A stretch of 64,000 bases of DNA from a virus (IMGVR_UViG_3300025849_000010:64001-128000); one strand, 5' to 3'; shown: positions 40,301 to 59,632, counted from the stretch's first letter. Made by a program: numbers and translations. The notes: generated by a model from the letters alone, not told the origin.

Positions 40301-43300
40301 AGTTGGTGACTTCATTGTTGCAGAAAACAGAACTGGTAACATTACATTTAAAAACACAGTTACAGTTGGTGAACTTTCAGCACTGAAACTTGCAGTTTCG
40401 GATGTTGTTATTGAAGCAATTTCAACTGATCCAGGACTAGGCGACAACGAACCAGGTGGTGCTACAGATACACGTTTGATTACGCAGAATGCAGCACGTA
40501 GCTTCTTAGCAAACAGACTAGGTGACTTCATTGACAAGAACGTATCTACTAACTCAGTTAGTGGTGCTGTTCCGCAGATGAACGCACAAGGCTTGTTAAA
40601 CTCGGATATTATTCCAGCAACACGTAACTTTAGTTTGTTCACAACAGATAAGAAGTTTGGTAGATTTAACCTAACTGATGATATTCCTGCGCAGGAACCG
40701 CTACAAGGCGATATTGCACAAGAACGTTACTCACGTACATTCTTTACATTAAGTGCGCCAATAGCATTGAATGAAGACGATGTTATTATTGAATTAAACA
40801 CTGGAGCAACTGCTATTGTTGATGAAGACAACGGCGGCGCGGCTACTGTTTATCTTGCTAACATCGAAGGAACGTTTAGTAATAATATTAGCGGAAACGT
40901 ACTTAATGTAAGAGGAAGTAACACTACTACATATATTACTAATACTGGTTCAAGTGAAGTACGAGACATTCAGTACACAATGGTACAAGACTCGTCGAGT
41001 CAGTTCCTAAGATACTTACCATCAGGCGCAGCTTTTGTTAATGGACAAACCATTACAGCAGCTAATTCAAAGACACAAGGTGTAATTACCGGTCAAGTTG
41101 AAGGTGTTGCATTGGCACTTGATCTTGGAAATATTAGTACAGGTAATGGATATGTTCCATCAACTGGTTCACAAACATATAAGGGTGTTGTACTTTCAAA
41201 TGTTAGCGGAACAGGCACAGGTGCTATTGCAGACATTAGTGTAACCAACGGCAAAGTTACAAACGTTGACCTTACAAGAGGCGGCAGCGGATATGCTGTT
41301 GGTAATGCATTAACTGCAACAGTTGACCAACTAGGCGGACAGAACACACAAGACTTCCAGGTTAGCATACTTGGAGTTGATAATAGAGTGTTTGTTGAGT
41401 TGCTAGCAGGAAAGTTTGTTGCTACAACAAGTTCAAATGATTATACTGAAGACGGCAACGCAGTAGTAACTACTGTACCGTTAGGAAATACAACACTTAC
41501 TGCATTTAATGCTGACACTATTGGCAACGGCGGTAATGTTGATTATCCAACTTCACGAATAACAATTAATTCGCATATATTTGATAACGGAGATGTAGTT
41601 AACTATGCTAGTTCACCAAATCCAGCAATTGGCGGATTTATACAAGGTGAAAGTTACTTTGTTAAAGTTGTTGATGCAAACACTATTGAACTTTACAACA
41701 GATACGATTTAAATGCTGCAAATAAAGTAATATTTACTTCCAGTTCTACAGGCACACATGCGTTTATTATTAACTATGTTGACACACGTAAAGATCGCAT
41801 TTATGCACAGGACCACGGATTTACTAACGGACAAGCATTCCGTTTTGTAGGAGCTAATCCTCCAACTGGCATGGCAAGCGGCGGATACTACTATGCTGGT
41901 ACAGTAAGTCAGAATACATTCTCGGTACACGAATTCCAGCAAGACGCAGAAAACAGTGTTAATGGAGTAACTCAAGGTGCTATTAACTTTATTCAAACTG
42001 GTAGCGGTAGTGCAGACTTTATTCACCAAAATATTACAATTTACGGAGAAGTTAACACATCAGGTAATGTAGAAACTAACTGGGCACTAACTGGTAGTGC
42101 AAACGTAGACGCATCAAACATTGTGTCGGGTGTTATTAGTACATCACGTTTGGCAGCAGTTGGTACAGCGAATAGTGATACTTACTTAAAAGGTGACAGC
42201 AGTTGGGATTATGCAACACGTACAGTTCGTACAGCACTTAATTCACCGCTTAACATAACTGGTAACTTCTATACAAGCGGCGGTCAAAACTTCTACTTCA
42301 AGAACACACAGTTTGATATTGACAGAACTGATGGCACTTTAGGTAACCAAAGTTTCACTAACCTTGGTGTTGCAGCATTTAGTAAAGCACAGTTTAACGT
42401 AAACTCAGGTGAAGTTGAACTAAAAGCAGGAGTACTAGATGCAGGAACACTAGACGGACTAGATAGTCAATACTTCCTAGATCCAGGAAACTTACTAAAT
42501 CCAGTTCCTGTATCACGTGGCGGTACACAGATAGATCAATATATTGCCGGGGATATGATTTATGCAACATCTCCAACAACACTAAACAGACTGCCAATTG
42601 GTAGTCAAGGTGCTGTTATGGTTGTTGATGAATTAGGGAACCCAGCATGGTCAAATGACGTTGCTCCGTTTGTTGAAGATACTAATAACTTCGGTGTTTC
42701 AAGACCACTAGAAATACGACATGACGTAACAAATACTCCAGCAGTTGGCATTGGTGTTGGTATGCAGTTCCAGGTTGAAACTGCTAACAATAACAGAGAA
42801 GTTGGCGGCACTATTGACGCTGTTGCATCAGACGTAACATTTGGTTCAGAAGACTTTAGCTTTAAGTTTAACTTAATGGCAGCAGGCTTCTTAGCAGAGC
42901 GTATGGTACTAGACTCATTAGGTAACTTAGCTATTGACGGTGACTTAAATGTTGACGGTGGTGATATTAAAACTACTAAAACAAGTGCAACTGTATACGA
43001 TACTACAGTTACATCACTAAGCATTGGTAGAGCTGCAACTTCAGTTACTATTGGCGCAGATAAAACTGGTGAACTAAGAGTACGAAATGCAACTCTAGTA
43101 GTTGGCGGTGACTCAATAGAAACACAGCCAGTTGATGCAAAAATTAAAGCACCAAATTCACTAGGTACTAACAAGCAAGGTCCAGATTTAACTATTCAAG
43201 GCGGCGCAAGTACAGGTAGTGGCGTAGCAGGATCAGTATTCATTGATACTGGTGCTAGTGGATCAAGCGGCAGTACTTCAAATACACAAGTAAATCGTGT

Positions 43301-46097: not shown

Positions 46098-46100
46098 TTT

Positions 46101-46475
46101 ATGGGAAACATGACAAGAGCCTCGGCAAGAGATTACTTTACCGGAAATGCCGGGGCTCAGTTACGAGGATTTGACAAAACTATTAACTTTGCTGCTACAG
46201 TGTATGTTACAGGAAACGTGGACGGTGGCCGTGCTGGAACTGCATATGGTAATAGACGTTATGAATACGTAAATGCACCTAACAGTGATTACAACGGAAA
46301 TGTTTATCCAAATACTACACAAGTAGATGCAACCCAATTAATTGATCAAGCACTTGATGCAATACAACGAACTTGCGATTTAATTGAAGGTCGTATTAGC
46401 AATAGTTACTTTGATTGGAGAATATGTCACGCAAGTTGTCATTATAGCTGCCACGGATCAAGAGGGAGAAGATAA
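46101..46475 (+). CDS. Putative radical-SAM substrate protein A, C-terminal (CHxS)3-RGRR
   Basis: Ends WRICHASCHYSCHGSRGRR; starts 3 nt after the fibre stop; paralog of the next gene. Confidence 0.75.
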   Translation: MGNMTRASARDYFTGNAGAQLRGFDKTINFAATVYVTGNVDGGRAGTAYGNRRYEYVNAPNSDYNGNVYPNTTQVDATQLIDQALDAIQRTCDLIEGRISNSYFDWRICHASCHYSCHGSRGRR

Positions 46476-46647
46476 TGGCAGGATTAAGTCATGCACAATT
46501 AGAAGCTCGGTACTATGGTAATGCATATACAAGAATACGCACATTTGATAAAACTATTAACGTAGCAGCTACAGTATATTATGCGCGATATAATGGTAGT
46601 GGCCAAGGAACTGCATATGGTAATAGACGTTATGAATACGTAAATGC
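46236..46647 (+). repeat. 41 bp exact direct repeat shared by the two substrate genes (46236-46276 and 46607-46647)
   Basis: ggaactgcatatggtaatagacgttatgaatacgtaaatgc occurs in both; encodes GTAYGNRRYEYVNA. Confidence 0.9.
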
Positions 46648-46858
46648 CGGGCAAGGTGCCTTTGCTAATACAGATATTCCAAATGGTGTAGGTGACAATT
46701 TATTAATAAGAGCAGGTGATATACAAACATTTGCTTCAAATGCAATCAGCAGAACAGTAAATGGCATAGAAGGAAGAATTACAAATTCGTATTTCGACTT
46801 TAGAATATGCCATTCAAGTTGCCATTATAGCTGCCACGGCAGCAGAGGGAGAAGATAA
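46475..46858 (+). CDS. Putative radical-SAM substrate protein B, C-terminal (CHxS)3-RGRR
   Basis: Ends FRICHSSCHYSCHGSRGRR; TAATG overlap with the previous gene. Confidence 0.75.
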   Translation: MAGLSHAQLEARYYGNAYTRIRTFDKTINVAATVYYARYNGSGQGTAYGNRRYEYVNAGQGAFANTDIPNGVGDNLLIRAGDIQTFASNAISRTVNGIEGRITNSYFDFRICHSSCHYSCHGSRGRR

Positions 46859-47920
46859 ATGATAGGCGAAAGTTTTTACTATATCAGTAATAAAAAATAC
46901 TTAGGACGATCTACTGCAATGCTTTCGGCATTATCAGAAAGTCCGTGGAGCGGAGTTCAATCAAGACGTATTAGCATAATAATGCCAGATGGACATAGTG
47001 CAGTGCAAGAAAGTTATGCATCGTCGTTAAGTAATGATTATCCATTAGCAAACGCTGAAGATATGATAACATTTGCTAATTATAGCGATATTGATTCTTG
47101 GGAATATCTCAATAACAATACTAAGGAATTTTTATTATTTGAATCAGCGCATGAGTTTTTGAAGATGTATGCAAAGTATACAGCTTCGCTATTAAAAACA
47201 ACAACTAACAAAGATGTTAAACAAGTTGTTAAGGAATTTATTGTATTAGCAACTACTAGAGATGTAACATACTCGACAATGGGCGATTACAATGAAGGCG
47301 ATATCAATGCAGCAGTAGAGGAAGTATTTGCAGAAAACGTATTCTATGATATTCCTAATGCAACCAGTAAGCACTGGGGTTACGATATTCTTTTCTTTAT
47401 TAATGACAAGTACAATGAAAATGAAACCTATGCAGAAATTAATGTAACAACAACTGCATTTTTAAGAGAAAAGTTTACAGTACATAGTGATAAAATGATT
47501 CATGAAGTTATTAGTATGTTACAATCTAAAATTGGTTATGTAAGTGTTATTAACAATATTATTGATTGGTTTAATAATAACGGAAATACAGAATGGAATA
47601 GAGCTGAGTTTGTGAAAGATGTATTTCAAAATACGAATCGCATGCAAGCACTATACAGATTACGTGACTTTTGGAACGATGTAGGTTCTAATAAAGAATT
47701 AATGACATTAATTGACGGGCATGACGAATGGGAATACGAAGAAGTATATAAAGAGTTTGCTAGAACTATTCCAATTGTCATACAAATTGCAGAGGGCGGA
47801 TTTAATTTTGCAAATAACGAAGCACTAAGAAGTGCATGGAGCGAGGTAGAGTTTTTCTATAAACGTAAAAGTCGTATTCCTTATTTGCTGTTTAAAATAT
47901 TACCACTTGTACCGGAGTAA
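46859..47920 (+). CDS. Hypothetical protein in the radical-SAM cluster
   Basis: 353 aa ORF abutting substrate B; no motif recognised. Confidence 0.7.
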   Translation: MIGESFYYISNKKYLGRSTAMLSALSESPWSGVQSRRISIIMPDGHSAVQESYASSLSNDYPLANAEDMITFANYSDIDSWEYLNNNTKEFLLFESAHEFLKMYAKYTASLLKTTTNKDVKQVVKEFIVLATTRDVTYSTMGDYNEGDINAAVEEVFAENVFYDIPNATSKHWGYDILFFINDKYNENETYAEINVTTTAFLREKFTVHSDKMIHEVISMLQSKIGYVSVINNIIDWFNNNGNTEWNRAEFVKDVFQNTNRMQALYRLRDFWNDVGSNKELMTLIDGHDEWEYEEVYKEFARTIPIVIQIAEGGFNFANNEALRSAWSEVEFFYKRKSRIPYLLFKILPLVPE

Positions 47921-47922
47921 AA

Positions 47923-48630
47923 ATGACACAAGAAAATTACACACTGCCACTAAGTCCAACAGATTTAGCAGAAATATATAAAATAAAAACAAGCTCGGAA
48001 GATTACGTTCTCAAGGTTGATTATTTTAAAAGTAAGGAAGTACTGTCAGTAAAACATATACTCGTATATATTGCTAACACTAACTTTAAAGTACAGTTTG
48101 AAGGCATTGACGATGAATTAATAAATGAATATATAATTTCTAATTTTATGGTTGATTGTCCGTTACTTTCTAGATACATTACGTTAATTGCTAAACGTAA
48201 ACTAGGACAGGAATATAATCAAGTTGACCAAGCATTAAATACTATAATGTCTGATGCTGACATTGATTCATATTTAGAAAAGAATGGCGAATTATTTGAC
48301 GACTTGTTAGATAAACTAAAACATGTTACACTGTTTTGTTTAGATCAAGCTGGCAAATATGCCGACAAGTACAAAGAATTTATACCAGAAGAGATTGAAC
48401 GTGCAGATGAAGAAACTCAAATTGGACTAAATATTGTATATATTGCAACATACTCGTTGGACTTGTTGTATTTGTTAGGTAATAAATTTGGTCCGTGGCC
48501 TACTAATAAATTAAATGTTAGAGTGTTTAATGATGTTAGTAAGTATCAAGGAGCAGACCTATATAATACATTACTAAAATATGGTGTTGCAACTAGTATG
48601 TTAGAATTATTTGACGAGGAATCAGCATAA
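47923..48630 (+). CDS. Hypothetical protein in the radical-SAM cluster
   Basis: 235 aa ORF with TAATG overlap to the first radical-SAM gene; no motif recognised. Confidence 0.7.
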   Translation: MTQENYTLPLSPTDLAEIYKIKTSSEDYVLKVDYFKSKEVLSVKHILVYIANTNFKVQFEGIDDELINEYIISNFMVDCPLLSRYITLIAKRKLGQEYNQVDQALNTIMSDADIDSYLEKNGELFDDLLDKLKHVTLFCLDQAGKYADKYKEFIPEEIERADEETQIGLNIVYIATYSLDLLYLLGNKFGPWPTNKLNVRVFNDVSKYQGADLYNTLLKYGVATSMLELFDEESA

Positions 48631-49811
48631 TGACAATGCAACAATCATATTGTAAACAGATGAAGTATAGTGGGCCAGAAAGTCTACCTCCTTCACACGC
48701 CCAGAAGTTTGACGTATTAATTAACTTTGAAGGCCTTACTGGCTGCGAATATGGTTGTTTAGGATGTTTTGTTAACAAGAATCAAGACGTTACTACAATG
48801 AATCAAATGCTAACAACTGCAAAAGAACTTGCAGATGGTGTAAAGCGTACAGGTTTAAACTTACGTGAGTTTGTTGTAGGTCCGACAGATTTATTCTCTG
48901 CGTCAAATACTGATAGCATTCTTAATAATACTATTATACAAGATATAATGCGCGAACACACTAATGCACGTATTGCTACACCTAGTAAGATAGACGGCGT
49001 GAGCATGGAAAGGTTGCGAGAAGTATTTGCAATACTTGATGATCCTTCTAAGTATAGAGACGAAATGATCATTGAGTTTATTATGCCAGTTGGCGATGTT
49101 GATCGTATACTAAATGACGAAGAATACTTTAAAGATATTAAATCAAAATTAGAATTCTTTAAATCCGAAACTCCCAAGAAAATTGACTGGAGTTGGACAT
49201 TACAAGCAAGTAATGTTATGCAAAAACATCTAACTAAAGAAAACTATAATAAACTGCTATATAAGATTCTTGATGAATATGAAACTATTCTAGAAATGAA
49301 CCCAGCGTTCTCTAGAGCACCGAGTGTATTGCACCAGCGTAAGAACTTAGTAGCATGGAATAACTTCCTAAAAGAAGTAGTAGATCAAGACAATTTTAAA
49401 GACGTTACAATGAGTATGGCTAACTTATATTGTAACTCCATGAACTTCATAGGGTTAACTGTTGTTCCTGGATTAGAGACGCCACGTGTATTTTTAAATG
49501 TAATGTTACACGAACAAGCATTCTTTACACAGCATAGGGATTTAGAAGTAACAGGACTAAGTTTTGAAGAAATTCTAGTCAAGAGGGATCACTTAATAGC
49601 ACAAGGGTTAGCTAAGTCGTCTAAAGTTAAGGATTGTGCAGATTGCAAATATGCAGTAGCATGTGCAAACAGACTAATATTCCAAGCACAAGATGCAATG
49701 AACATGCACGAATGTTTAATGCCGCTAGAAGTATTAGAACTGTATAATCCGTTTGTTACTAGTAACGAACAGTGGAACGACGATGCTTTAAAAATCGTCA
49801 ATGCTCGTTAA
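48630..49811 (+). CDS. Divergent radical-SAM protein 1 (GPTD type)
   Basis: CEYGCLGC; VVGPTD; C-terminal CADCKYAVAC...C. Confidence 0.8.
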   Translation: MTMQQSYCKQMKYSGPESLPPSHAQKFDVLINFEGLTGCEYGCLGCFVNKNQDVTTMNQMLTTAKELADGVKRTGLNLREFVVGPTDLFSASNTDSILNNTIIQDIMREHTNARIATPSKIDGVSMERLREVFAILDDPSKYRDEMIIEFIMPVGDVDRILNDEEYFKDIKSKLEFFKSETPKKIDWSWTLQASNVMQKHLTKENYNKLLYKILDEYETILEMNPAFSRAPSVLHQRKNLVAWNNFLKEVVDQDNFKDVTMSMANLYCNSMNFIGLTVVPGLETPRVFLNVMLHEQAFFTQHRDLEVTGLSFEEILVKRDHLIAQGLAKSSKVKDCADCKYAVACANRLIFQAQDAMNMHECLMPLEVLELYNPFVTSNEQWNDDALKIVNAR

Positions 49812-50829
49812 CCTAAACTCAACTCCTACAGGATTTAACAATTATATAGAAGGCATAAGCCCTAAGGATAATAACTTTCTTAGGACAGAAGTTCATGCTG
49901 ATATATTACATGGATGCAGTCAAAAGTGTCCAGGGTGTTTCATTCCTAGAAAAAATCTTACTAATGCTGATCATCTTACAACACTATGCGATATATTGGA
50001 ATCTAGTGCATATACACCTGATGATGTTGTAATAGGTCCTACTGATATATTTGATGCTGAAAACTTTTGGGACTTAATGGACCATCCTAGTATGAAACGT
50101 TTATACAGTATTGCAGCACTAAGTTTTAACTCAACACTACTACAGGACTACGACACTGTACTTGCCAAACACACTAAGATTTGGAGTCTTTACGAAGGAT
50201 TGGATCGTACGCCTGATATAGATTTTAAAATAGTACTTGATATTACTAGATATTTACAAGGCGATATTGAAGACATGTGTCGCAAACTAGAACTTTTTAA
50301 ACAAGGTAGTGTACAGTTTAGAGTAAACTATTACCCGGGTATATTTGATCGTGTGAGCTATAATGATTTATGTGATATGATTAAAGAAGACTTCAATGCT
50401 CCAGTAGTTATATTGCCAGGTTTCTTAACAGACAGAAATAGTCGAGGTAAAGTTAGTAAATTACTTCCGATGTTTTTAGACGAGCTACGTAAACAAGATA
50501 TAAGACCCGAATACAAACAGTTATACACGATGTTTGATGCAAACTTTAATAGTCACGGATGTACCAATTATAGTTTTTACAACGGCAGCTTGTATATGAA
50601 TCCATTTGTGTTTGACGGAATATTGCAGCGTACACAAGAATTTAAAGTAGACAATCTTAATACTAAAAACTTTTTAGCTGAAAATTTATCATATGCAGCA
50701 TCTACTAAAGAATGTGAAAGTTGCGAATACTTAATGAGCTGTGCAGAGCGCAATGTATTGTTCTATATGAAGTCGAGAAATTTAACAGAGTGTGTTACAG
50801 TAAAGGAGTATACAAATGCCGGTCATTAA
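49801..50829 (+). CDS. Divergent radical-SAM protein 2 (GPTD type)
   Basis: CSQKCPGC; VIGPTD; CESCEYLMSC...C. Confidence 0.8.
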   Translation: MLVNLNSTPTGFNNYIEGISPKDNNFLRTEVHADILHGCSQKCPGCFIPRKNLTNADHLTTLCDILESSAYTPDDVVIGPTDIFDAENFWDLMDHPSMKRLYSIAALSFNSTLLQDYDTVLAKHTKIWSLYEGLDRTPDIDFKIVLDITRYLQGDIEDMCRKLELFKQGSVQFRVNYYPGIFDRVSYNDLCDMIKEDFNAPVVILPGFLTDRNSRGKVSKLLPMFLDELRKQDIRPEYKQLYTMFDANFNSHGCTNYSFYNGSLYMNPFVFDGILQRTQEFKVDNLNTKNFLAENLSYAASTKECESCEYLMSCAERNVLFYMKSRNLTECVTVKEYTNAGH

Positions 50830-51997
50830 AAATAACTTGTATTATGAGCTTACTACAGAAACGCAAACTAAGCCAGTAAGTGCAGTAAAAATACAGCTTG
50901 ATGTGTTAGACGGGTGTGTACACGCTTGCCCTGGGTGTTTTGTACATCGTAGAGGAAATGCACCTGAAGTTGATCATTTAAAAGATTGCCGAAACTTTGT
51001 AAAACGAATTACAGATGTAGGTGTTTTAGTTGACGAAATACTCATAGGCCCAACTGACTGTTTATCTAGTGAAAACTTTTATGAAGTAATGAGCAATACT
51101 GATTTGTTAGCAATGATAAATGAAAACTCTCCTATACTTGCTTTTACTACTACATTTTTAGAAAAGGATCTAACACATTTAGATCGTTGGATTACGTTTT
51201 TACATGACAATGTGAATACTGACACTGAAATAGAAATTGGCATAGCAACTGATCCTATGCGATATAAAGATATACTTTATATACAGCAATTAAAACGCTG
51301 TATTGCATATGTCGACCAGCATTTAAAACATGAATGTACATATACGTTTATTGTTAATATTAGAAACTATGACCTAGACTACGAGCAAATACATGATTTT
51401 GTAGTGAAGCAATTTGATACAACAATTGACTTTATTCCAAGTGTAAGTCGCAGTCATAAAGCAAGTATCATACTACCTACACTAAATCAATTCAATGAAT
51501 TTTTTGAAGCATTACCAGAAGATACTCATTTAAATAATATTATGGTAGATCACACACATGCTGGGCATAATTATACCGTATTAAATTTTAAAGGAGGACA
51601 GTGGTATCTAAGTCCGTTCCTTTATGAAAATATGGCATTGTATGATAATATGTTTGCAGTAAACAATCTAGACGAAGCATATGATCTTACTGTGTCACAA
51701 GTAGATCGAGCTAAAGGAACAGTGTGCGAAAACTGTGATTTATTTTTTAGTTGCTACAATAGAAAAATTATTTTATTACGTGACTACTTGGGTACTAAAG
51801 AGTGTATAGCGCCTAAGCAAAATATGTTAAAAAATATACATAACTATAATAAAAGTGCTGCTGAAATGTATGACTGGACAGGATATACTGTTGAGGGTGA
51901 TAAGCAAGGATATCGTAAAAAATTCTTAATAACTAAAGACGGCGATGAAAGATTAGATGAAATAAAAAAGGTGTATCATGTCAATCGTAAAGGATAA
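50816..51997 (+). CDS. Divergent radical-SAM protein 3 (GPTD type)
   Basis: CVHACPGC; LIGPTD; CENCDLFFSC...C. Confidence 0.8.
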   Translation: MPVIKNNLYYELTTETQTKPVSAVKIQLDVLDGCVHACPGCFVHRRGNAPEVDHLKDCRNFVKRITDVGVLVDEILIGPTDCLSSENFYEVMSNTDLLAMINENSPILAFTTTFLEKDLTHLDRWITFLHDNVNTDTEIEIGIATDPMRYKDILYIQQLKRCIAYVDQHLKHECTYTFIVNIRNYDLDYEQIHDFVVKQFDTTIDFIPSVSRSHKASIILPTLNQFNEFFEALPEDTHLNNIMVDHTHAGHNYTVLNFKGGQWYLSPFLYENMALYDNMFAVNNLDEAYDLTVSQVDRAKGTVCENCDLFFSCYNRKIILLRDYLGTKECIAPKQNMLKNIHNYNKSAAEMYDWTGYTVEGDKQGYRKKFLITKDGDERLDEIKKVYHVNRKG

Positions 51998-53072
51998 TTA
52001 TTGGGAAGCAACAATGGGTCATAAAGACTATAATATCAGTGTAGGTGATGCACATGATATAAAAGTAAACATGACAGTTGACGTCCTTGACGGGTGCATA
52101 CATGCTTGTGAAGGATGCTTTGTTAATCGCAGAAGACAGCAAGCATCTAATGATCAGTTTTCCAAAGTACTAGCTGCACAAAAAATGTTTAATCAAAATA
52201 ACATTCGATTTAGCAGCATAATACTTGGTCCTACTGATGTCTTTGGTAATTTAAATATACAGGACGTTTTAAAATTTGATAGTTTTAAAGAAGTAGTAAG
52301 TAACTGCACCACTGTCGGAATGATTAGTACACTGCTTAACGATGATACTCATATCAATCCTATAATAGATGGCTTCAACGCTATACCTAAATGTGAAGGT
52401 TTCTTATATGACTTTCAAGTAGTTATTGATGTTAAACGAGCACTTGATCCAGAATATAGAAAGAATCACTTAGCACGTATACATGATGTTTTAAATAGAT
52501 TTACTGATCCCTTAAACTTTACTATAATTTTTAATATGGATCAAGACTTTGCTGAGTTTGGAAATCTAGCAGAAATATGTCGTGTAATAAAAGAAGAGTA
52601 CGACACTATTGTAGAGCCTATTCCTAGTTATCAGCGTTATGGTAAAGGAAAAATACACAACGATATTATTAGGGCGTGGGTTGATATAATAGAAGACACG
52701 TTCACTAAAGAAAATCAAGAATACCTAGCCATGACAATAGCTGACAAAAATCAAGGTGGCGCACTTGAATTAAATTATACATATAGTGCAGGAGAATTTT
52801 ATTCAACTCCGTTTGTTTATGAAGTTGCACTTATACGTGACGAAAAGTTTAGAGTAAAAGATCCAACAGATATTAAAAGTTGGACTAGCTTAAAAACAGA
52901 CTTGTATATAGATCAGCTTGCGTATTCCCCTAAAACGCTGCATTGTGAAACATGCAATCGTCGTGAAATATGTTTGAAAAAACACGTATTAAGTTATATG
53001 GAGCATTTTGACTTTACGGAGTGTGTGTATCCTAGAGAAGTATTAAATGAATATAGGCCGTTAACATGTTAA
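51978..53072 (+). CDS. Divergent radical-SAM protein 4 (GPTD type)
   Basis: CIHACEGC; ILGPTD; CETCNRREIC...C. Confidence 0.8.
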   Translation: MSIVKDNYWEATMGHKDYNISVGDAHDIKVNMTVDVLDGCIHACEGCFVNRRRQQASNDQFSKVLAAQKMFNQNNIRFSSIILGPTDVFGNLNIQDVLKFDSFKEVVSNCTTVGMISTLLNDDTHINPIIDGFNAIPKCEGFLYDFQVVIDVKRALDPEYRKNHLARIHDVLNRFTDPLNFTIIFNMDQDFAEFGNLAEICRVIKEEYDTIVEPIPSYQRYGKGKIHNDIIRAWVDIIEDTFTKENQEYLAMTIADKNQGGALELNYTYSAGEFYSTPFVYEVALIRDEKFRVKDPTDIKSWTSLKTDLYIDQLAYSPKTLHCETCNRREICLKKHVLSYMEHFDFTECVYPREVLNEYRPLTC

Positions 53073-54193
53073 AAAATGATTGGCAAACTTATCTGCAAAA
53101 TAATAAACAATCTCTTTCACCAGAGGGGTTTATAGATCCTGCTGATCAAAACAAGATAAAAATTCAGTTAATGCTTGAAATATTAGAAGGTTGTGCTTAC
53201 AACTGTTCGGGCTGTTTTGTTAAAAGACGAAAAAACTTTGGACAGGGATTAGGGCTAGACTATGCTGCACAACTTGTTGACGAGTTAACTGATCAATATG
53301 TATTAGATGATATTATTGTAGGACCTACTGATTTCTTCTCCAGCGGAAATATAATACAAGTCTTAGAAGATCCTAGATTTAAAAAGATAGTAAACGCATT
53401 ACCCGAAGACGGCGGACTACAGCATAACTGTTCAATAGACTTTTTTATAGGAAATGATCGAGTAAAAGAAATTATTACTTATATTGAAAATAGCTATCTA
53501 AAGGATCGTCCGTTTGATGTACAAATTGCAGTAGACTTGCATATGTTAGATAATCCACATGTACACGATTTAATAAGTGAACGCCTAGAAGCTATGGAAA
53601 ATAGTTCTGTAGAATATGAAGTAAGCCTGCTGTGTAATATAACTCAAGACATTGACGACGATGTATTAGACAAAATTGAAACTGTTAGAAACAAGTGGAA
53701 TACTGTTGTTGAATGGGGGCCTAGTTTAGTACGTGCCATGACAAATAGGCCTGATAAAATGTTAGGTATGATACAAGGATGGAATGAAAGTATAGGAAAG
53801 GTTGCTAGCATAGATGAAAAGCGTTTTACACAAAACTTTATATGGCAACAGAGCGATACTAGTCATAAAAACTTTAATGAAGTAATTGTTACAGTTAATA
53901 ATGACCAGTTATATATAGTTCCGTTTTTATATGAAAATTCTCCTATATATCATCCTAGTTTCGAAGTACCGATAGGCGAAAATATATTAAACAGTATTTT
54001 TGATAAAAGGCACGAATTGCAATTAACACAATATGCTAACATTCCTAACTTAGTATGCAACGGATGTAAGTATGTAGAAAATTGTAGCTCTAGATTAATA
54101 CCAACGCTAATCACAGATGTAGTTAAGCATAACCAGTGTCTAATAAATAAAAACATAATGGCATTATACGACAATATAGGATATAATAAATGA
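53066..54193 (+). CDS. Divergent radical-SAM protein 5 (GPTD type)
   Basis: CAYNCSGC; IVGPTD; CNGCKYVENC...C. Confidence 0.8.
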   Translation: MLKNDWQTYLQNNKQSLSPEGFIDPADQNKIKIQLMLEILEGCAYNCSGCFVKRRKNFGQGLGLDYAAQLVDELTDQYVLDDIIVGPTDFFSSGNIIQVLEDPRFKKIVNALPEDGGLQHNCSIDFFIGNDRVKEIITYIENSYLKDRPFDVQIAVDLHMLDNPHVHDLISERLEAMENSSVEYEVSLLCNITQDIDDDVLDKIETVRNKWNTVVEWGPSLVRAMTNRPDKMLGMIQGWNESIGKVASIDEKRFTQNFIWQQSDTSHKNFNEVIVTVNNDQLYIVPFLYENSPIYHPSFEVPIGENILNSIFDKRHELQLTQYANIPNLVCNGCKYVENCSSRLIPTLITDVVKHNQCLINKNIMALYDNIGYNK

Positions 54194-55398
54194 GCTGCGG
54201 AACAGAAATACTAAAAGCATTAATGCCGGATAACATTACTGATGATCACTTGTTGGACACAAAGGCACAGCAAGAAGCAAATGCAGTAACACACGCAATA
54301 TTAGAGCGTAAGCGTCCTCTTATTGGCGAAATTGAAATAACACTTTTTGAAAACTGTCCTATTAATTGCGACTTTTGCTTCCATGATAAAGAAAGCGAAG
54401 TAGGCATGACATATGAAGAAATGCTAATGAAACTTCCTCTGGTAGAAGCACACTGTAAAAAGATGCAGGGCAAAGTACATGCTATGCAGTTTAATATGGT
54501 AGGTGGAGAGCTGTTTCAAGACCGTGCAAAAGATACACTGTATCCTATGTTTTTTGATTTAATGGTAGAAATTAAAAAAATAACAGATAGGTACGGACAC
54601 GTTATACAAGTAGTTTGGGTTAGTAACTTTTTGTTTAAGTATCACGAAGATGTACGCAAACTGCTAGACGATCTAAATGCAGTAGACATACCAAGTAAAC
54701 TGATTGCTAGTTATGATCTAAGTGGACGTCCTACAGGCGGACAATACACTAAAAATATCGAACGTTTTAAAGATTATATTTCTACTATCAATTTAGTAGC
54801 AACAACAGACAGTATCAATGCATTGTTTGCAGGAGATGATTATTTCAATTATCTATATGAAAACTTTGATTTGTTCTTTGATGATTTTATTCCAGATCCG
54901 GGATACGACCATTTAGTACCAGCTGATTCGCTTTACTTAAAGTTTATGAAATACATTGCTGATAATTATCCAGAAGTAAATCCGTATAAAGAACTTATAG
55001 AAAATGATGTTAATCAAATGCATTGTATGAGCTTAAACAAGTTAACTATTTTTCCGGATAACACAACTGCAAATTGCCGTTGGCATCGTTATACACGCAA
55101 TGATTTTCAACACGCATATATTAGAAAAGACAACACTAACCTCATGCAAGCATACATGGACGAAGTTGGTTGTTTAAGTTGTCAATATTTTGATCGTTGC
55201 GGCTTCCGTTGTTATACGCAATGGGACTGGAAGAATCGTGCTAGGGATTTACCACCTGGCATTTGTCCTATAAAAGAGTTCTTTAATTATGTAGGGGATA
55301 CTGATCAAACATCATCTCTTCCTCATAATAAGACCTTACGTCGGGCACCATTCCCGTCTGAGATGAAGGATCAGGAAGGCTTATATGGTCGAGAATAG
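54190..55398 (+). CDS. Radical-SAM/SPASM-type protein 6
   Basis: CPINCDFC; VGGELF; C-terminal CLSCQYFDRCGFRC...ICP. Confidence 0.88.
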   Translation: MSCGTEILKALMPDNITDDHLLDTKAQQEANAVTHAILERKRPLIGEIEITLFENCPINCDFCFHDKESEVGMTYEEMLMKLPLVEAHCKKMQGKVHAMQFNMVGGELFQDRAKDTLYPMFFDLMVEIKKITDRYGHVIQVVWVSNFLFKYHEDVRKLLDDLNAVDIPSKLIASYDLSGRPTGGQYTKNIERFKDYISTINLVATTDSINALFAGDDYFNYLYENFDLFFDDFIPDPGYDHLVPADSLYLKFMKYIADNYPEVNPYKELIENDVNQMHCMSLNKLTIFPDNTTANCRWHRYTRNDFQHAYIRKDNTNLMQAYMDEVGCLSCQYFDRCGFRCYTQWDWKNRARDLPPGICPIKEFFNYVGDTDQTSSLPHNKTLRRAPFPSEMKDQEGLYGRE

Positions 55399-55702
55399 CA
55401 TTGTAAGTTTCTTTATCTTCGCTATAGGGTTTAAAGTACGGATCATTGCCGGCTAATAAATCTTTATCATCTAGTAGCTCGTAGAAATCGTATTTAAAAT
55501 CTAAACTTATCCAATAAGCATAACAGATTGCTACGAAATAACTTTTAGCAGGATACACCCATTCGTCTACACGTTCGTAGAAATGTTTCACTGCCCAAAT
55601 AACACTGTCTTCTTCTGTACGAATGTCGACTTTGTTTAAGTCGTCAGTAAATTCTGTTGCAGTACTATTAAATAGTTGTAATCTAGTCTTCCAGTTCAGC
55701 AT
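55283..55702 (-). CDS. Hypothetical protein in the radical-SAM cluster
   Basis: 139 aa; start overlaps the end of the upstream minus-strand radical-SAM gene; aromatic/acidic composition. Confidence 0.7.
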   Translation of the reverse strand: MLNWKTRLQLFNSTATEFTDDLNKVDIRTEEDSVIWAVKHFYERVDEWVYPAKSYFVAICYAYWISLDFKYDFYELLDDKDLLAGNDPYFKPYSEDKETYNAILDHISLPDPSSQTGMVPDVRSYYEEEMMFDQYPLHN

Positions 55703-56600
55703 ACCAGTCTATTAGTCCCTTATATCCATTACAGCCGTTGTTTAAGTCTTTAACATATCGATAATGTTCAGTTAAGCATTTACCGTAGTATTTACAATTA
55801 TGACATATTTCACTGACGTTTTCTGTAGACTCTTTTGAAGCCCACAACAAGTATTCGTCAAACGTATTATATTCTTCAAAAAACTCATTATCGTTCTTGT
55901 CAAATTCAAGCACACCGAATTTAGCATCAGGCGTAATGTATACATGATCGTTACTAAATGCATTACGATTGCCTTCTAATACATCTTCTAAATCATCTAC
56001 GTTAACAAAATCAAACTGCTTTAATACAGGAGATTCTATCCATTGCTGCACATGTTGTTCAAAATCTCTATGTGTAACAGGGTGTGCATTTGCTTGATTA
56101 GTTGAGTAAGGTTTTATTTCTACACACTTAACATTTTGCATCATATTAAATGTATTAATCATTAAGTCTACATTAGTAGCTAATACCTTAGGACTTGCTA
56201 AAACTAGTACACTAATATCCTTAGGAAAAAGCATCATATTCTGTAATACTTTATCACTTTGTTCTCGAGCTTCGAAGTCATAGCTTACACTAATATGCAC
56301 ATCATCATCTAAAAAGAAATCAGGCCTTGCACTTAAATTAGTATTGATGTTAATTCTACCACTAAAATATTTTCTAATAACAGTTTTCAAACTATAAAAA
56401 TATTCTTTATCTAGCATACCTATTTCGCCACCGTATAAATCTACGTGTGTAATCGGTACAGACACTTCACTAAGACGCTTGTCTAGATCTTCCGGAGTAA
56501 TACGCTTTTTATTACCTAGTTGGGCTGTAGTAAGATAACAAAAGTCGCAGCGAAAGTTACAAAAATATGTAGGATTGATACTAACAGTAAATTCAGTCAT
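55683..56600 (-). CDS. Radical-SAM protein 7 with C-terminal Cys cluster
   Basis: CNFRCDFC; YGGE; CHNCKYYGKC...GC. Confidence 0.88.
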   Translation of the reverse strand: MTEFTVSINPTYFCNFRCDFCYLTTAQLGNKKRITPEDLDKRLSEVSVPITHVDLYGGEIGMLDKEYFYSLKTVIRKYFSGRININTNLSARPDFFLDDDVHISVSYDFEAREQSDKVLQNMMLFPKDISVLVLASPKVLATNVDLMINTFNMMQNVKCVEIKPYSTNQANAHPVTHRDFEQHVQQWIESPVLKQFDFVNVDDLEDVLEGNRNAFSNDHVYITPDAKFGVLEFDKNDNEFFEEYNTFDEYLLWASKESTENVSEICHNCKYYGKCLTEHYRYVKDLNNGCNGYKGLIDWYAELED

Positions 56601-57627
56601 ATTCCCTCACATAAGGAGTAACGCTATCAGGGTCTTGATTATTCAACTTTAAAATAGTTGGAGCAAGTTGTTTCATTTCAAAACAATGTTCTTCTACTTG
56701 ACCTTCACGCTTGTGATCTCTAACAGTTTTACGACAGCCGTTACATATTCTAAACATAGGACACGTTAGGCATGCCTGCTTCATTGAAATTAGTTCTGGC
56801 GCATCTTGCAACGGTGTACTAAATCCTCCTGACATTTCATATTCAAAGTCGATAGGATAATCTTTGTCGTCACCTAAACTACCGCAACTATAATAGTCGC
56901 CGCCTGGATTGAACGCACGTATGCCTTCGTCACAATGTCTGTTTTGAGGACAAGTAGTTGTATCACTTTGTAGCCTACGAACCATTTGTTGTGTATTGTA
57001 TTCCCAGTCCATTAGTCCAGCGTTGTAAATATCAATGTATGCTTTATATATTTTACTAAGACGATATGTATAGCCCTGCTCGCCGCTTGCCATTGCATAG
57101 TTTACTTTGCAAACTACATTCATCTTTTTAGCAAGCTCTACTGTTTTAATAATAGTATGCTCGTTCATGTCGTCAATAACAGCAATAAACTCAGGACGAT
57201 AACCACAAAGTTCTAACATTTTATCTGATACTTTCCAGAAGTCTTCTTCTGTAAATATTGAAAAGTCACCTTTAAGTCTACCAGCACCGTATTGAAAACT
57301 AGTCGAGATTCCCATACGTGGGTGATTGAATAAATCTATCCACTTTTCGGGTTTAACGTAAAACGGCCATAAGTTGCTAGTAAAGCTAATAGTTGCCGGC
57401 ATATCGTGTGTATCGAGATATTCTATTATTTTCCAATAATATTCTGGAGACATCATGAGTGGATCACCACCGTTAACAATAATTGTATTAGTGTCGGGAT
57501 ATCTATCTAAAAATCTAAAGATATAATCGTGATCTAATTGTCCTGCATTATTAGGATCGATCTTAGTCGAAGAACAAAATGTACATTTGAAGTTACATGC
57601 TTCAGTGGGTTTAATAATAAGATCCAT
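56593..57627 (-). CDS. Radical-SAM/SPASM protein 8
   Basis: IKPTEACNFKCTFC; NGGDP; CPQNRHC...YYSC...CLTCPMFRICNGC...HC. Confidence 0.9.
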   Translation of the reverse strand: MDLIIKPTEACNFKCTFCSSTKIDPNNAGQLDHDYIFRFLDRYPDTNTIIVNGGDPLMMSPEYYWKIIEYLDTHDMPATISFTSNLWPFYVKPEKWIDLFNHPRMGISTSFQYGAGRLKGDFSIFTEEDFWKVSDKMLELCGYRPEFIAVIDDMNEHTIIKTVELAKKMNVVCKVNYAMASGEQGYTYRLSKIYKAYIDIYNAGLMDWEYNTQQMVRRLQSDTTTCPQNRHCDEGIRAFNPGGDYYSCGSLGDDKDYPIDFEYEMSGGFSTPLQDAPELISMKQACLTCPMFRICNGCRKTVRDHKREGQVEEHCFEMKQLAPTILKLNNQDPDSVTPYVREYD

Positions 57628-58655
57628 TACGGCGCTAACTCCAACATTAGTGTTTTAGGAGCAGGACATATATCGCCTTCCCATGCAAGTTTGTAACAAT
57701 CGCCACCGCAGTAAAACTGCACAGGACATTCATAACATTTAGAATTTCTATTCATTTCAGTTGCAATATTACACATTCGACTTGGATGAAATAATACATG
57801 ATCTATGTCATCAGAAATGTGTGCATAGTGTGCAGTTGGCGCACTATTGGGACAACCTGCAATGCGACCGTCTGCATTTATAGTAAACAGTTTTTGTTCA
57901 CAGTCTCTACAGAATGTACTTGCACGAGTAATGCCATCCTCAAACTTCATATATACACTTTCAATTGTAGAGTTGTATATTTTATCTCTAAGATTTCTTG
58001 CTTGTGTTTCCTTGTGCAACTGTAAGTACCAATCTTGTATTTCTATATTAGTAGGAAATATCTTAGGATTGCGCACAGCATTGCCGTCTGAAGTTAATCT
58101 TTCAAAGTCAACTTCTTGTATACCTAAGTCGATCAAATATTCGATAACATCTGCAGGATTTTCTTGTATCATATCTTTACTTAAACTAACAAAACACTTG
58201 ATGTCTACTCCATCTGCTGTTAGTTGACGCACATTATCTTCCCATAGTTTTTGCTGTTTAGCATTAGCCCAACGTATAAACGGATCGTAACTTGTACCTA
58301 AACGTTTGTGTAGTATTCCGTATATTAGATCAAGTTTCTCGTCTGTAAGTTTATATGTTAAGTTAGTGGTCATGCCGTAGTAAGCTCTGTCACCCCAAAC
58401 ATCATAAGTCAGTTTGTGAAACAGTTTCATATCTTCTACGGGTGCAAGCATAGGTTCACCGCCGTGGAACTCGAAAGCTATTCCGCTATTGGGCATTTTA
58501 GCATACAGTCTATTAAAAAAATCTGCTGTAGCACGGGGATCAAAATAAATCTTACGTCCGTTGATGCCATTAGTAAAACAATGAGAACAGTTTAAATTAC
58601 AAGTCTCAGTTGTTTTAATATAAGACATATACTGTGTGGCGTTATGTACGGTCAT
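57627..58655 (-). CDS. Radical-SAM/SPASM protein 9 (anSME/peptide-maturase-like)
   Basis: IKTTETCNLNCSHC; FHGGEP; CRDC...DGRIAGC...CYECPVQFYCGGDC...ICP. Confidence 0.92.
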   Translation of the reverse strand: MTVHNATQYMSYIKTTETCNLNCSHCFTNGINGRKIYFDPRATADFFNRLYAKMPNSGIAFEFHGGEPMLAPVEDMKLFHKLTYDVWGDRAYYGMTTNLTYKLTDEKLDLIYGILHKRLGTSYDPFIRWANAKQQKLWEDNVRQLTADGVDIKCFVSLSKDMIQENPADVIEYLIDLGIQEVDFERLTSDGNAVRNPKIFPTNIEIQDWYLQLHKETQARNLRDKIYNSTIESVYMKFEDGITRASTFCRDCEQKLFTINADGRIAGCPNSAPTAHYAHISDDIDHVLFHPSRMCNIATEMNRNSKCYECPVQFYCGGDCYKLAWEGDICPAPKTLMLELAP

Positions 58656-59100
58656 CTAATCCCCAAGATAGCATAATGCTATTGTCTTTATTTAAAGCAC
58701 GGTGCGGTGTTTCTGCAGGCACAAACAAGCAATGTCCACTGTGTGCTGTTATCTCTGTACCGTTTATTTCTAATGTTTTACTTCCATGAGTAACTTGCAA
58801 TACTAAGTCTACAGGATCGGTGTGAATACCGAATGATGGAGAATTAGGCTTTGCGTAGAACACATGACAAGTACCATTATTAAAATTACAAATCTGTTCA
58901 TACTTTTCTAATTTAATTGTTATATCATCACGCAGCAAAAGATTATCTACTACTCCGAGATATGAAATATAATCATTTTCGGTTATATAATGTTGTAAGC
59001 CTTCACTGTCAATGTAGCTAGTCATTACTCTATTATATGCTAAGTCACTGCGGAGTATATCATAAAACTCTAACATTGACATTTTAACTTTAGGAATCAT
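58642..59100 (-). CDS. JmjC/cupin-type Fe(II)/2OG hydroxylase
   Basis: HVFYA..NSPSFGIHTDPVDLVLQVTHGSK...LFVPAETPHRA gives an HxD...H triad, as in Cupin_4/YcfD-type protein hydroxylases. Likely start ATG 59100. Confidence 0.78.
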   Translation of the reverse strand: MIPKVKMSMLEFYDILRSDLAYNRVMTSYIDSEGLQHYITENDYISYLGVVDNLLLRDDITIKLEKYEQICNFNNGTCHVFYAKPNSPSFGIHTDPVDLVLQVTHGSKTLEINGTEITAHSGHCLFVPAETPHRALNKDNSIMLSWGLDDRT

Positions 59101-59101
59101 A

Positions 59102-59632
59102 TCAACACCACACGTCAAACGGCATGCAAATTCGCATGTCTTTTACAGTCTCGACATTGTGCCAAACAAAGCTAGGAAATATAAACAAATCACCAGCCTG
59201 AGGCTTTAATACAACAGGTTCAAATATATGATTTAAGTTACTGTTGTAACCTCTATTAGCATTACCTCTAGGATCGTGTAATACTAGTTCTCCGCCTACA
59301 GGAGGAGTTGCAAGATAAAGTATTCCAGTAAACTGACTTCCTAAGTGGTTGTGTATATGATGTGTTGCACCTTGTCTATAAACATGTACCCACCAGCTAA
59401 AAGAAAATGATTTCTGTTTTGGAAAGTCTGATTCTAAATAAGATTTAATAGAATTGTCAATAAACTCGTGTGCTAATTTTAATTCTGAATACTCGTCAAT
59501 ATCAGGACGCTCGTGATCACTTATACCATCAGGAAACTTCATGATAATATCGTTAACTACATTGCCTAACGCAATTTGATCATCCCACGTAAACTGTGCA
59601 AGTGTAGTAGGCCAAAGTTCATTAAGTATCAT
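59102..59632 (-). CDS. 2OG-Fe(II) oxygenase superfamily protein
   Basis: WVHVY..GATHHIHNH..SQFTGILYL...LVLHDPR...GDLFIFPSFVWHNV...RI. Confidence 0.85.
   Translation of the reverse strand: MILNELWPTTLAQFTWDDQIALGNVVNDIIMKFPDGISDHERPDIDEYSELKLAHEFIDNSIKSYLESDFPKQKSFSFSWWVHVYRQGATHHIHNHLGSQFTGILYLATPPVGGELVLHDPRGNANRGYNSNLNHIFEPVVLKPQAGDLFIFPSFVWHNVETVKDMRICMPFDVWC

Follow-up and report, generated by a model that had tools for sequence, protein, structure and literature searches.

Why would a phage spend 13.5 kb, among the genes for its particle, on a cassette of iron-sulfur enzymes? The question is raised by a 64,000-nucleotide stretch of viral DNA (IMGVR_UViG_3300025849_000010:64001-128000, here called the window), in which positions 46101 to 59632 hold 16 contiguous open reading frames (ORFs). 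These encode two paralogous small proteins with a common Cys- and His-rich tail (P1 and P2), nine proteins that combine a Cx3Cx2C motif with a C-terminal Cx2Cx5C cluster, a cupin/JmjC-like oxygenase, a 2-oxoglutarate (2OG)-Fe(II) oxygenase, and three unknowns (U139, U353, and U235). An earlier reading of this DNA from its sequence alone, hereafter the sequence-only reading, described the 16 genes as two convergent, overlapping runs, and all of the ORFs were found in place. The answer proposed here, to which we assign a probability of about 0.6, is that the enzymes modify the tail of a particle protein belonging to the fibre or baseplate module, not a secreted peptide. The cassette appears not to have been described before as a unit; its gene content, the invariance of its tail, and the linkages of its genes are documented below. 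No paper interpreting it was found among those searched. Phage papers list its genes as accessory or as DNA-repair/metabolic, and a large review of jumbo phages does not mention radical S-adenosylmethionine (SAM) enzymes.

The putative substrates are P1 and P2, which are 52% identical and were correctly recognized in the sequence-only reading as paralogs with Cys/His tails. Both end CHxSCHYSCHGSRGRR, that is, in a C-terminal tail of 16 residues made of three Cys-His-x-Ser units followed by Arg-Gly-Arg-Arg. Beyond the tail, P1 has a single Cys and P2 a single His. An AlphaFold2 (AF2) model of P2, with a predicted local distance difference test (pLDDT) score of 74.5, consists of a helix, a beta-hairpin, and a second helix, followed by the tail at low confidence; neither PDB nor BFVD contains a significant match to this fold. 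Neither protein has a signal peptide, a peptidoglycan-binding domain, or a Pfam domain. Assignments of P2 to the Pfam family Phage_30_8 (15.5 bits against a cut-off of 25) and of P1 to PHB esterases (a model match) were rejected, both being at chance level. The PHROG family matched by the C-terminal part of P1 is annotated as of unknown function.

How widely is this tail conserved? A tblastn search with P2 gave no match, the query being too short. An exhaustive HMMER search with P2 over 1.84 billion representatives recovered about 28 true clusters with N-terminal domains of 58 to 257 amino acids, a range that becomes 58 to 296 when the tail protein gp170 of the Agrobacterium phage Atu_ph07 is included. 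All complete sequences found in this way end in the tail, except for one (P0012) that reads on past the second CH unit. In an alignment of 18 homologues, C112, H113, S115, C116, H117, C120, H121, R124, G125, R126, and R127 are invariant, and the N-terminal domains of the same proteins are only 26 to 56% identical to that of P2. Across all relatives, the tail Cys and His residues never vary, and the Ser residues and the terminal RxRR are almost as conserved: the middle and last Ser may be Asn or Ala, and the Gly may be Ser or Asn. As judged from these sequences, conservation of the tail motif is far beyond chance.

The tail is also closely tied to the enzymes, four of which (A, B, C, and D) form the core of the cassette. 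A matches 15 GenBank phage records, all of 223 to 490 kb, and C and D match the same 15. The records comprise the Ralstonia/Burkholderia RSL2/RSF1/FLC/S13 group, Agrobacterium Atu_ph07, Sinorhizobium Phosso, and Pseudomonas pPa_SNUABM_DT01 (DT01); all cultured carriers are jumbo phages of Gram-negative hosts. In RSL2, Atu_ph07, and DT01, the gene order is cupin, A, and small tail protein, with B, C, and D afterwards, and the tail proteins end in CHSSCHTSCHGSRGRR, CHSSCHASCHNSRSRR, and CHTSCHTSCHSARGRR, respectively. At the nucleotide level, the cassette has no match among GenBank phages. Phages RP12 and RP31, with their virion proteome, were considered as further carriers and set aside; the tail protein, A, C, and D give no match to them.

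Searches from either end of this association lead to the other. Starting from P2, radical-SAM-like genes with the cassette Cys motifs lie beside the tail genes in 14 of 14 viral loci, and cassette genes lie beside the tail gene in all eight loci of a scan of one genome per prokaryotic species, in both cases where the sequence extends. The viral linkage was scored by motif, with orthologs confirmed by BLAST in one relative, L011, and in the genome loci. Starting from C, a relative of which is encoded on at least 270 IMG/VR contigs, 27 out of 28 loci that span 18 kb or more prove to have a tail gene: within 10 kb in 20 of them, and as two tail genes just past the fetched flank in the other seven. 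The tail, A to D, and, outside Atu_ph07, U139 recur as a set in these loci, and likewise in some ten cultured jumbo phages. In the single tail-less locus, the contig ends there. Tail proteins commonly occurring without radical-SAM genes, a pattern that the sequence-only reading had named as telling against it, were not what these surveys found. The linkage is near-obligatory, which fits a reading of enzymes plus substrate.

Where does the finished protein go? Proteomic data exist for Atu_ph07, PEG (polyethylene glycol)-purified particles of which were boiled in sodium dodecyl sulfate (SDS) and analyzed from gel slices by electrospray ionization tandem mass spectrometry (PMC6102473). The numbering in that paper is that of RefSeq, gp180 being the giant gene of 13,350 nucleotides. 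The tail protein gp170 (31.9 kDa) was identified by 8 unique peptides covering 35% of its sequence (PMC6102473, Table S5). The enzymes gp164, gp165, gp168, and gp171 and the cupin gp172 were not among the particle proteins (PMC6102473). gp170 was present in bands 1 to 9 and most abundant in band 1, to which proteins over 100 kDa migrate and which otherwise held proteins of 75 to 140 kDa; other proteins of about 30 kDa peaked in bands 7 and 8 (PMC6102473). That gp170 is listed and the enzymes are not implies that the tail protein travels with the particles without its enzymes, in a form resistant to SDS and heat. Provisionally, its peak in band 1 fits a covalent or unusually stable assembly, short of proving one.

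The surroundings of the cassette also fit a particle protein. Both here and in Atu_ph07, a baseplate-wedge gene and a giant fibre-like gene precede the cassette, which in RSL2 and DT01 adjoins baseplate, spike, or fibre-like genes. Is it confined to phages? The genome scan returned two contigs binned as Rhodobacteraceae, which resemble the marine phage type, five Bdellovibrio-related assemblies, and one short contig from an unclassified bin. A to D and U139 are all present in the Bdellovibrio-related loci, most of which have in addition an E-type gene (see below) and a second A-like gene. One of these cassettes sits at about 199 kb of a 299-kb contig with genes for EF-G-like and LepA-like GTPases, which marks the contig as chromosomal. 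Of 301 genomes sampled within one Bdellovibrio-related class, 7 have an ortholog of C at an E value of 1e-60 or lower. The cassette had been called phage encoded; this holds for the phages, but it is not phage-only, since some Bdellovibrio-related bacteria carry it on the chromosome. In the two Bdellovibrio-related loci scanned for it, genes at the flanks join a methylation motif like that of type IV pilins, at the N terminus, to a Peptidase_S74 domain at the C terminus, the chaperone domain that ends phage tail fibres. Several such genes stand in tandem beside the cassette (L024 4406-8148; L026 17582-19983). Association with fibre genes is thus seen in two cell-attacking entities of very different kinds.

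A parallel from Bdellovibrio itself is offered by the mosaic adhesive trimer (MAT) fibres, which carry S74 chaperone domains and mediate prey recognition (PMC10769870). As with these, phage-like, S74-terminated fibre genes flank the Bdellovibrio-related cassettes; unlike them, the flanking genes also have the pilin-type N-terminal methylation motif. Radical-SAM genes are not mentioned in the MAT paper (PMC10769870).

What kind of enzymes are encoded? All nine of the candidate radical-SAM proteins have Cx3Cx2C near the N terminus and Cx2Cx5C near the C terminus, as the sequence-only reading had noted. Only C and D pass the gathering cut-off of the Radical_SAM family PF04055 (29.5 bits; scores in Table 1); B and those E proteins without a PF04055 score match Fer4_12 only, or nothing, in Pfam. 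A, B, and C each have at least seven late Cys residues, as in a full SPASM domain, arranged as Cx2Cx5Cx3C in A and B and as Cx2Cx5Cx2C in C. D and E1 to E5 have four to six, with Cx2Cx5C plus one or more Cys, and are twitch-like. For the SPASM model TIGR04085 (cut-off, 27 bits), A passes and C scores 18.9 bits, so only A has a SPASM or twitch domain (TIGR04085, PF13186) by score, the others showing it by motif alone. A profile of the A family matches anSME (4K37) over its full length (E value, 8e-12), followed by ChlB, CteB (5WGG), and SuiB, and the closest solved structure to C is likewise anSME. The best NCBIfam matches are PapB, anSME, DarE, DynA, and HxsB, all far below cut-off. By sequence, A to C belong to the SPASM class of protein and peptide maturases, whose targets are Cys, Ser, His, and aromatic residues in short motifs, and D has a single twitch-like cluster.

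In A, C, and D, the Cx3Cx2C motif begins at residue 11 to 19. The lack of an N-terminal recognition domain, which is a feature of anSME as well, suits enzymes whose target is a protein and not a leader-guided peptide. C is the most conserved part of the cassette, at 53 to 70% identity in all relatives, including the marine, soil-phage, and Bdellovibrio-related versions, and orthologs of D share 41 to 66% identity. B, which matches a phage radical-SAM family (phrog_1802), has orthologs in RSL2 (34%), Atu_ph07 (30%), and the Bdellovibrio-related contigs. An apparent insertion of 350 nucleotides in C of many viral loci turned out to be the adjoining paralog D merged into the match.

The remaining five, E1 to E5, are only 18 to 25% identical in pairs and share the invariant motifs GCx3CxGC, GPTD, and Cx2Cx5Cx16C. 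An Atlas model of E3 resembles bacterial radical-SAM or radical-SAM/SPASM clusters, with template modeling (TM) scores of 0.59 to 0.65 over some 300 to 320 residues. When the E family is aligned with the A family by hhalign, the C-terminal cluster alone aligns, at a probability of 29%. On the strength of the invariant motifs and the similarity of the predicted structure, E1 to E5 may be taken as divergent radical-SAM-like enzymes, an assignment less certain than that of A to D. Are all nine needed? Atu_ph07 has no E-type gene, RSL2 has one, and five are present here, which argues that A to D are the core and that the nine found here reflect a lineage-specific expansion of E. The nine radical-SAM enzymes of the sequence-only reading are therefore present, with the qualification that only four of them belong to the core.

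Two Fe oxygenases had also been claimed. The 2OG-Fe(II) enzyme is clear, and 2OG oxygenases are found in RSL2 and DT01 as well. The JmjC-type protein is borderline by score: it reaches 26.8 bits for Cupin_2 against a cut-off of 27.2 and 23.3 bits for JmjC_2 against 22, with no single stretch passing, and an HxD...H triad is present. Orthologs of this cupin lie directly upstream of A in RSL2, Atu_ph07, and DT01. The small accessory protein U139 has orthologs in RSL2 and the Bdellovibrio-related contigs and is found in every relative examined except Atu_ph07, where BLAST gave no match within the stretch fetched. Its fold gave weak winged-helix-like rows only (Z of 3.3 or lower) and nothing in Foldseek searches of PDB or Atlas, and co-folding of P2 with U139 produced no usable complex (score, 0.01). 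A role like that of a RiPP (peptide made by the ribosome and modified after translation) recognition element, or like that of HxsD, is a guess. The ~360-amino-acid proteins of the RSL2 and Bdellovibrio-related cassettes were considered as homologues of U353 and rejected (hhalign probability, 2%).

Table 1. Genes of the cassette and the ORF directly upstream, with positions counted in the window
Feature	Position	Strand	Remarks
Giant fibre-like structural ORF, 3920 aa	34335..46097	+	directly upstream; context, not part of the cassette
P1, 124 aa, putative substrate	46101..46475	+	tail CHASCHYSCHGSRGRR encoded at 46425-46472; phrog_35144 match, C-terminal part only
P2, 127 aa, paralog of P1	46475..46858	+	tail CHSSCHYSCHGSRGRR encoded at 46808-46855
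U353, 353 aa	46859..47920	+	no Pfam, NCBIfam, PHROG, or Atlas match; kept in marine relatives
U235, 235 aa	47923..48630	+	no family match; 35-37% identity in marine relatives
E1, divergent radical-SAM-like paralog	48630..49811	+	GCx3CxGC, GPTD, Cx2Cx5C...C
E2, divergent radical-SAM-like paralog	49801..50829	+	shared motifs
E3, divergent radical-SAM-like paralog	50816..51997	+	Pfam Radical_SAM 17.1 bits, below cut-off; structure similarity
E4, divergent radical-SAM-like paralog	51978..53072	+	Fer4_12 18.1 bits; NrdG-type activase E value 6.6e-5, far below cut-off
E5, divergent radical-SAM-like paralog	53066..54193	+	shared motifs; PF04055 15.7 bits
B, core, radical-SAM/SPASM-like	54190..55398	+	CPINCDFC and Cx2Cx5Cx3C; phrog_1802, E value 2.7e-24
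U139, small accessory protein, 139 aa	55283..55702	-	phrog_20737; AF2 pLDDT 85.8
D, core, radical SAM	55683..56600	-	PF04055 32.6 bits, above cut-off; one C-terminal 4-Cys cluster
C, core, radical SAM/SPASM	56593..57627	-	PF04055 34.1 bits; most conserved part of the cassette
A, core, radical SAM/SPASM, anSME-like architecture	57627..58655	-	TIGR04085 28.7 bits; PF04055 22.7 bits; no N-terminal recognition domain
Cupin/JmjC-like oxygenase	58642..59118	-	HxD...H triad (H99-T-D and distal His)
2OG-Fe(II) oxygenase, PF13759	59102..59632	-	65 bits against cut-off of 27; TIGR02466-like

How might these components work together? P1 and P2 would be synthesised as ordinary cytoplasmic proteins, and their disordered C-terminal 16 residues would be modified by the core enzymes, A to C of the SPASM type and D with a single auxiliary cluster. 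E1 to E5 and the two Fe(II) oxygenases probably contribute in this lineage, and U139 may help. The N-terminal domain would be kept and the finished protein built into the particle within the baseplate/fibre module; what results would be a structural or host-contact protein that carries a chemical modification, and no peptide would be released. Such a virion protein, as a putative fibre tip, adhesin, or metal-binding appendage, had already been favored over a secreted product in the sequence-only reading. That preference fits the lack of any protease or transporter (Pfam, PHROG, and NCBIfam give no peptidase or transporter match for any of the 16 genes), the variable N-terminal domains, and gp170 in particles; the modification itself we infer, as we do the tail's role as substrate, the chemistry, and the role of the product.

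Several chemistries can be imagined. Cys or Ser might be oxidized to formylglycine, as by anSME. The sulfatase motif is C/S-x-P/A-x-R, and the last unit of the tail, C-H-[GAST]-S-R, has the same Cys-to-Arg spacing, which makes formylglycine, a reactive aldehyde, one possibility. Ranthipeptides and triceptides suggest other candidates, namely, thioether links or His-to-C-beta cross-links, and hydroxylation of His or Arg could fall to the cupin/JmjC and 2OG enzymes. As for the product, it might serve as a rigid cationic anchor, as a covalent cross-linker, or as a metal site at Gram-negative envelopes.

Comparison with known maturation systems helps to place the enzymes. anSME (TIGR03942; PDB 4K36-4K39) acts on a Cys or Ser in a short motif of a folded protein and, like A, is a minimal radical-SAM and SPASM protein with no N-terminal recognition domain. 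A itself, at 42.1 bits against a cut-off of 349, is not an anSME, and C scores 35.7 bits. In contrast to the anSME system, no sulfatase is encoded in the cassette, the motif has no Pro and recurs together with His, and three further radical-SAM families are present. The maturases of Cys- and His-containing RiPPs (the ranthipeptide enzyme PapB, the CXXX-repeat maturase TIGR04115, the sactisynthase CteB, and the triceptide-class His-cyclophane synthases HaaB and HtkB [PMC11499958]) are also radical-SAM/SPASM enzymes that act on short periodic Cys/His motifs, and the three-residue H-x-S unit equals the ring size of triceptides. A scores 42.9 bits to the PapB model NF047865 (cut-off, 340) and 29.9 bits to TIGR04115 (cut-off, 350). 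Unlike in these systems, there is no leader peptidase or exporter here, a protein of 124 to 296 amino acids would stay intact, and Cys and His motifs are interleaved. A numerical precedent is that of the T4-like Campylobacter phages CP220 and CPt10, which have 11 to 12 radical-SAM genes, five of them in one module, regarded in 2010 as “highly unusual” and proposed by the authors to have a metabolic role (PMC2853527). These genes were considered as relatives of the cassette enzymes and found to be unrelated: the Campylobacter phages gave no match to D or E3 (E value, 1e-3), to C (1e-20), or to A. We know of no CHxS-tail protein in them.

Could the cassette be a phage counterpart of the bacterial HXS defence system, which of the systems on record comes nearest to it? 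In HXS, an effector with five HxS repeats is matured by HxsB, HxsC, and the small protein HxsD, gains 8 Da on one SHRSS unit, and is exported to block phage DNA entry (PMC13128918). The components HxsA, HxsB, HxsC, and HxsD are covered by TIGR03976 to TIGR03979 (Li et al., Nat Commun 2026; PMC13128918). On this explanation, a cationic HxS-type tail would bind DNA in the envelope for superinfection exclusion or for passage of the phage's own DNA. The two systems share a whole protein with basic-rich His-x-Ser repeats, more than one radical-SAM enzyme, and a small accessory protein, and HxsA, with its HxS repeats, two radical-SAM enzymes, and small partner, binds DNA electrostatically (PMC13128918). 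The tail here holds three HxS units and ends in RGRR, and A and C weakly match HxsB (33.5 bits; cut-off, 370) and HxsC (22.8 bits; cut-off, 267.9). All Hxs scores are, however, at least 10-fold below cut-off, P1 and P2 do not match the HxsA model (TIGR03979) at an E value of 0.1 or lower, and U139 has no NCBIfam match at 1 or lower and so none to HxsD, a functional analogy to which is possible. The unit here is Cys-His-x-Ser, in exactly three repeats at the extreme C terminus, with Cys and His fixed and the middle Ser sometimes Asn or Ala. There is no export signal or peptidoglycan-binding domain; four to nine radical-SAM enzymes and oxygenases, in phage structural modules, take the place of two, and the protein is detected in a particle preparation. 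In outline, the cassette would work like HXS, but it fails every test of HXS membership, and we consider such a counterpart improbable.

Two other explanations dispense with the modified structural protein. The tail might be a metal or Fe-S site, the radical-SAM enzymes acting elsewhere (on the giant fibre, another virion protein, or a small molecule) and the tail protein being a scaffold, cluster carrier, or metal-bearing structural part. Spaced at i, i+4, and i+8, the Cys-His pairs would fall on a single face of a helix, which AF2 predicts weakly; an invariant motif fits a set of ligands as well as it fits a core peptide, nine iron-sulfur enzymes need clusters, and fibre genes are always nearby. 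A carrier merely serving the enzymes is hard to square with a tail protein that is found in particles when the enzymes are not. Conservation of Ser and RxRR would be superfluous for a simple metal site, and the class of A to C modifies Cys, Ser, or His in just such short motifs, so that this explanation seems unlikely, though not negligible. The cassette could also be a true RiPP cluster, in which the N-terminal domain is a long leader; a protease of the host, or an unlinked one, would cleave off the core of 16 residues, and lysis would set it free to act as an antibiotic, metallophore, or signal. A layout of precursor genes and then several radical-SAM/SPASM enzymes is the usual one for RiPPs, and duplicated precursors with identical cores are common among RiPPs. 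Such a leader would, though, span 42 to 280 amino acids with a predicted fold of its own, gp170 peptides that include the N-terminal domain are found in particles, the cassette is tied to fibre genes, and the versions examined have no protease or exporter, bar an unrelated ABC ATPase several kb away on one bacterial contig. A released peptide is therefore about as improbable as an HXS counterpart.

Modification of a particle protein is left as the preferred explanation, and a number of points weigh against it. The relation between enzymes and substrate is drawn from synteny alone, and a plain metal-binding site would show an invariant Cys/His motif just as well. The single PEG-purified preparation of Atu_ph07 also held RecA-like, SSB, terminase, and topoisomerase proteins (PMC6102473), and the migration of gp170 in band 1 could be due to aggregation, and not to a covalent link, as aggregates gather at the top of a gel. 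The E family falls below every curated radical-SAM threshold, and its profile has no match in PDB at an E value of 1 or lower. Lastly, the tail proteins have no signal peptide that would take the bacterial versions to the cell surface.

The layout of the locus deserves description in its own right. The plus run of ten genes (P1, P2, U353, U235, E1 to E5, and B) begins 3 nucleotides after the stop of the giant ORF, and the minus run of six (U139, D, C, A, cupin, and 2OG oxygenase) joins a NUDIX gene and a T4 gp15-like gene, both as the sequence-only reading had it. Adjoining cassette genes are spaced by -20 to +2 nucleotides, and the convergent 3' ends of the runs, in B and U139, overlap by 116 nucleotides (55283-55398), with no terminator-like site there. 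L011 differs in that its B ortholog belongs to the minus run, on the opposite strand. The left half of the window encodes portal, major head, and baseplate-wedge proteins, followed by a 1500-amino-acid wedge-like gene and then by the giant ORF. The virus record is 159.6 kb long and 44% complete by CheckV, implying a phage of several hundred kb. Scans for sigma-70 promoters and terminators returned chance levels only. The T4 late-promoter motif TATAAATA occurs once in the 64-kb window against 7.9 expected, even though the gp15, portal, and head genes are T4-like; the signals for late transcription must be other than those of T4. The G+C content is 33 to 35% in the plus run, 35 to 36% in the minus run, and 38 to 43% in the structural genes just upstream, with a drop from 0.40-0.43 in the 3' part of the giant ORF (40001-46000) to 0.33-0.35 at 46001-54000, which hints at a horizontally moving module.

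The giant ORF has no Pfam family. Its last ~130 amino acids are 40% identical to the C terminus of Atu_ph07 gp176 (48 to 59% in marine relatives), and no other part of it has a recognisable relative. gp176, of 66 kDa, is encoded a few genes upstream of the Atu_ph07 cassette and was detected in the particle preparation (PMC6102473). The 4450-amino-acid gp180, the positional counterpart of the giant ORF, is absent from the Atu_ph07 virion peptide list. Between the giant gene and the fibre/cassette genes of that phage lies gp178 (L002 3231-3944; 237 aa), by sequence a candidate GIY-YIG-type homing endonuclease. Other versions carry additions of their own: the RSL2 group has a dihydrofolate reductase (DHFR) gene and a second, DHFR-like ORF between B and C (L001 14027-15176, ORF073 and ORF074), and some cassettes have an extra B12-binding radical-SAM gene of ~575 to 607 amino acids (L026 7138-8865; JGI contig of P0030, 2082-3905).

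What would modification of the tail mean? Radical-SAM maturation is known for secreted peptides, for cofactors, and, since 2026, for one bacterial defence effector; to our knowledge, it is not known for virus-particle proteins. A bolder and distinctly doubtful version of the proposal is that jumbo phages and Bdellovibrio-related bacteria share a pathway that builds a new polycyclic or aldehyde-bearing Cys/His/Ser warhead on the C terminus of a structural protein of their attack fibres. If so, the warhead would be a covalent cross-linker, a metal site, or an anchor in the envelope or to DNA, needed to attach to or breach Gram-negative envelopes, and this would be the first case of a virus-particle protein modified by radical-SAM enzymes. 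Four cultured phage systems, namely, Atu_ph07, the RSL2 group including S13, Phosso, and pPa_SNUABM_DT01, allow direct testing. Should the tail prove to be modified, it would represent a new enzyme chemistry on the Cys-His-x-Ser unit, a new layer of virion maturation, and a tool shared by phages and bacterial predators.

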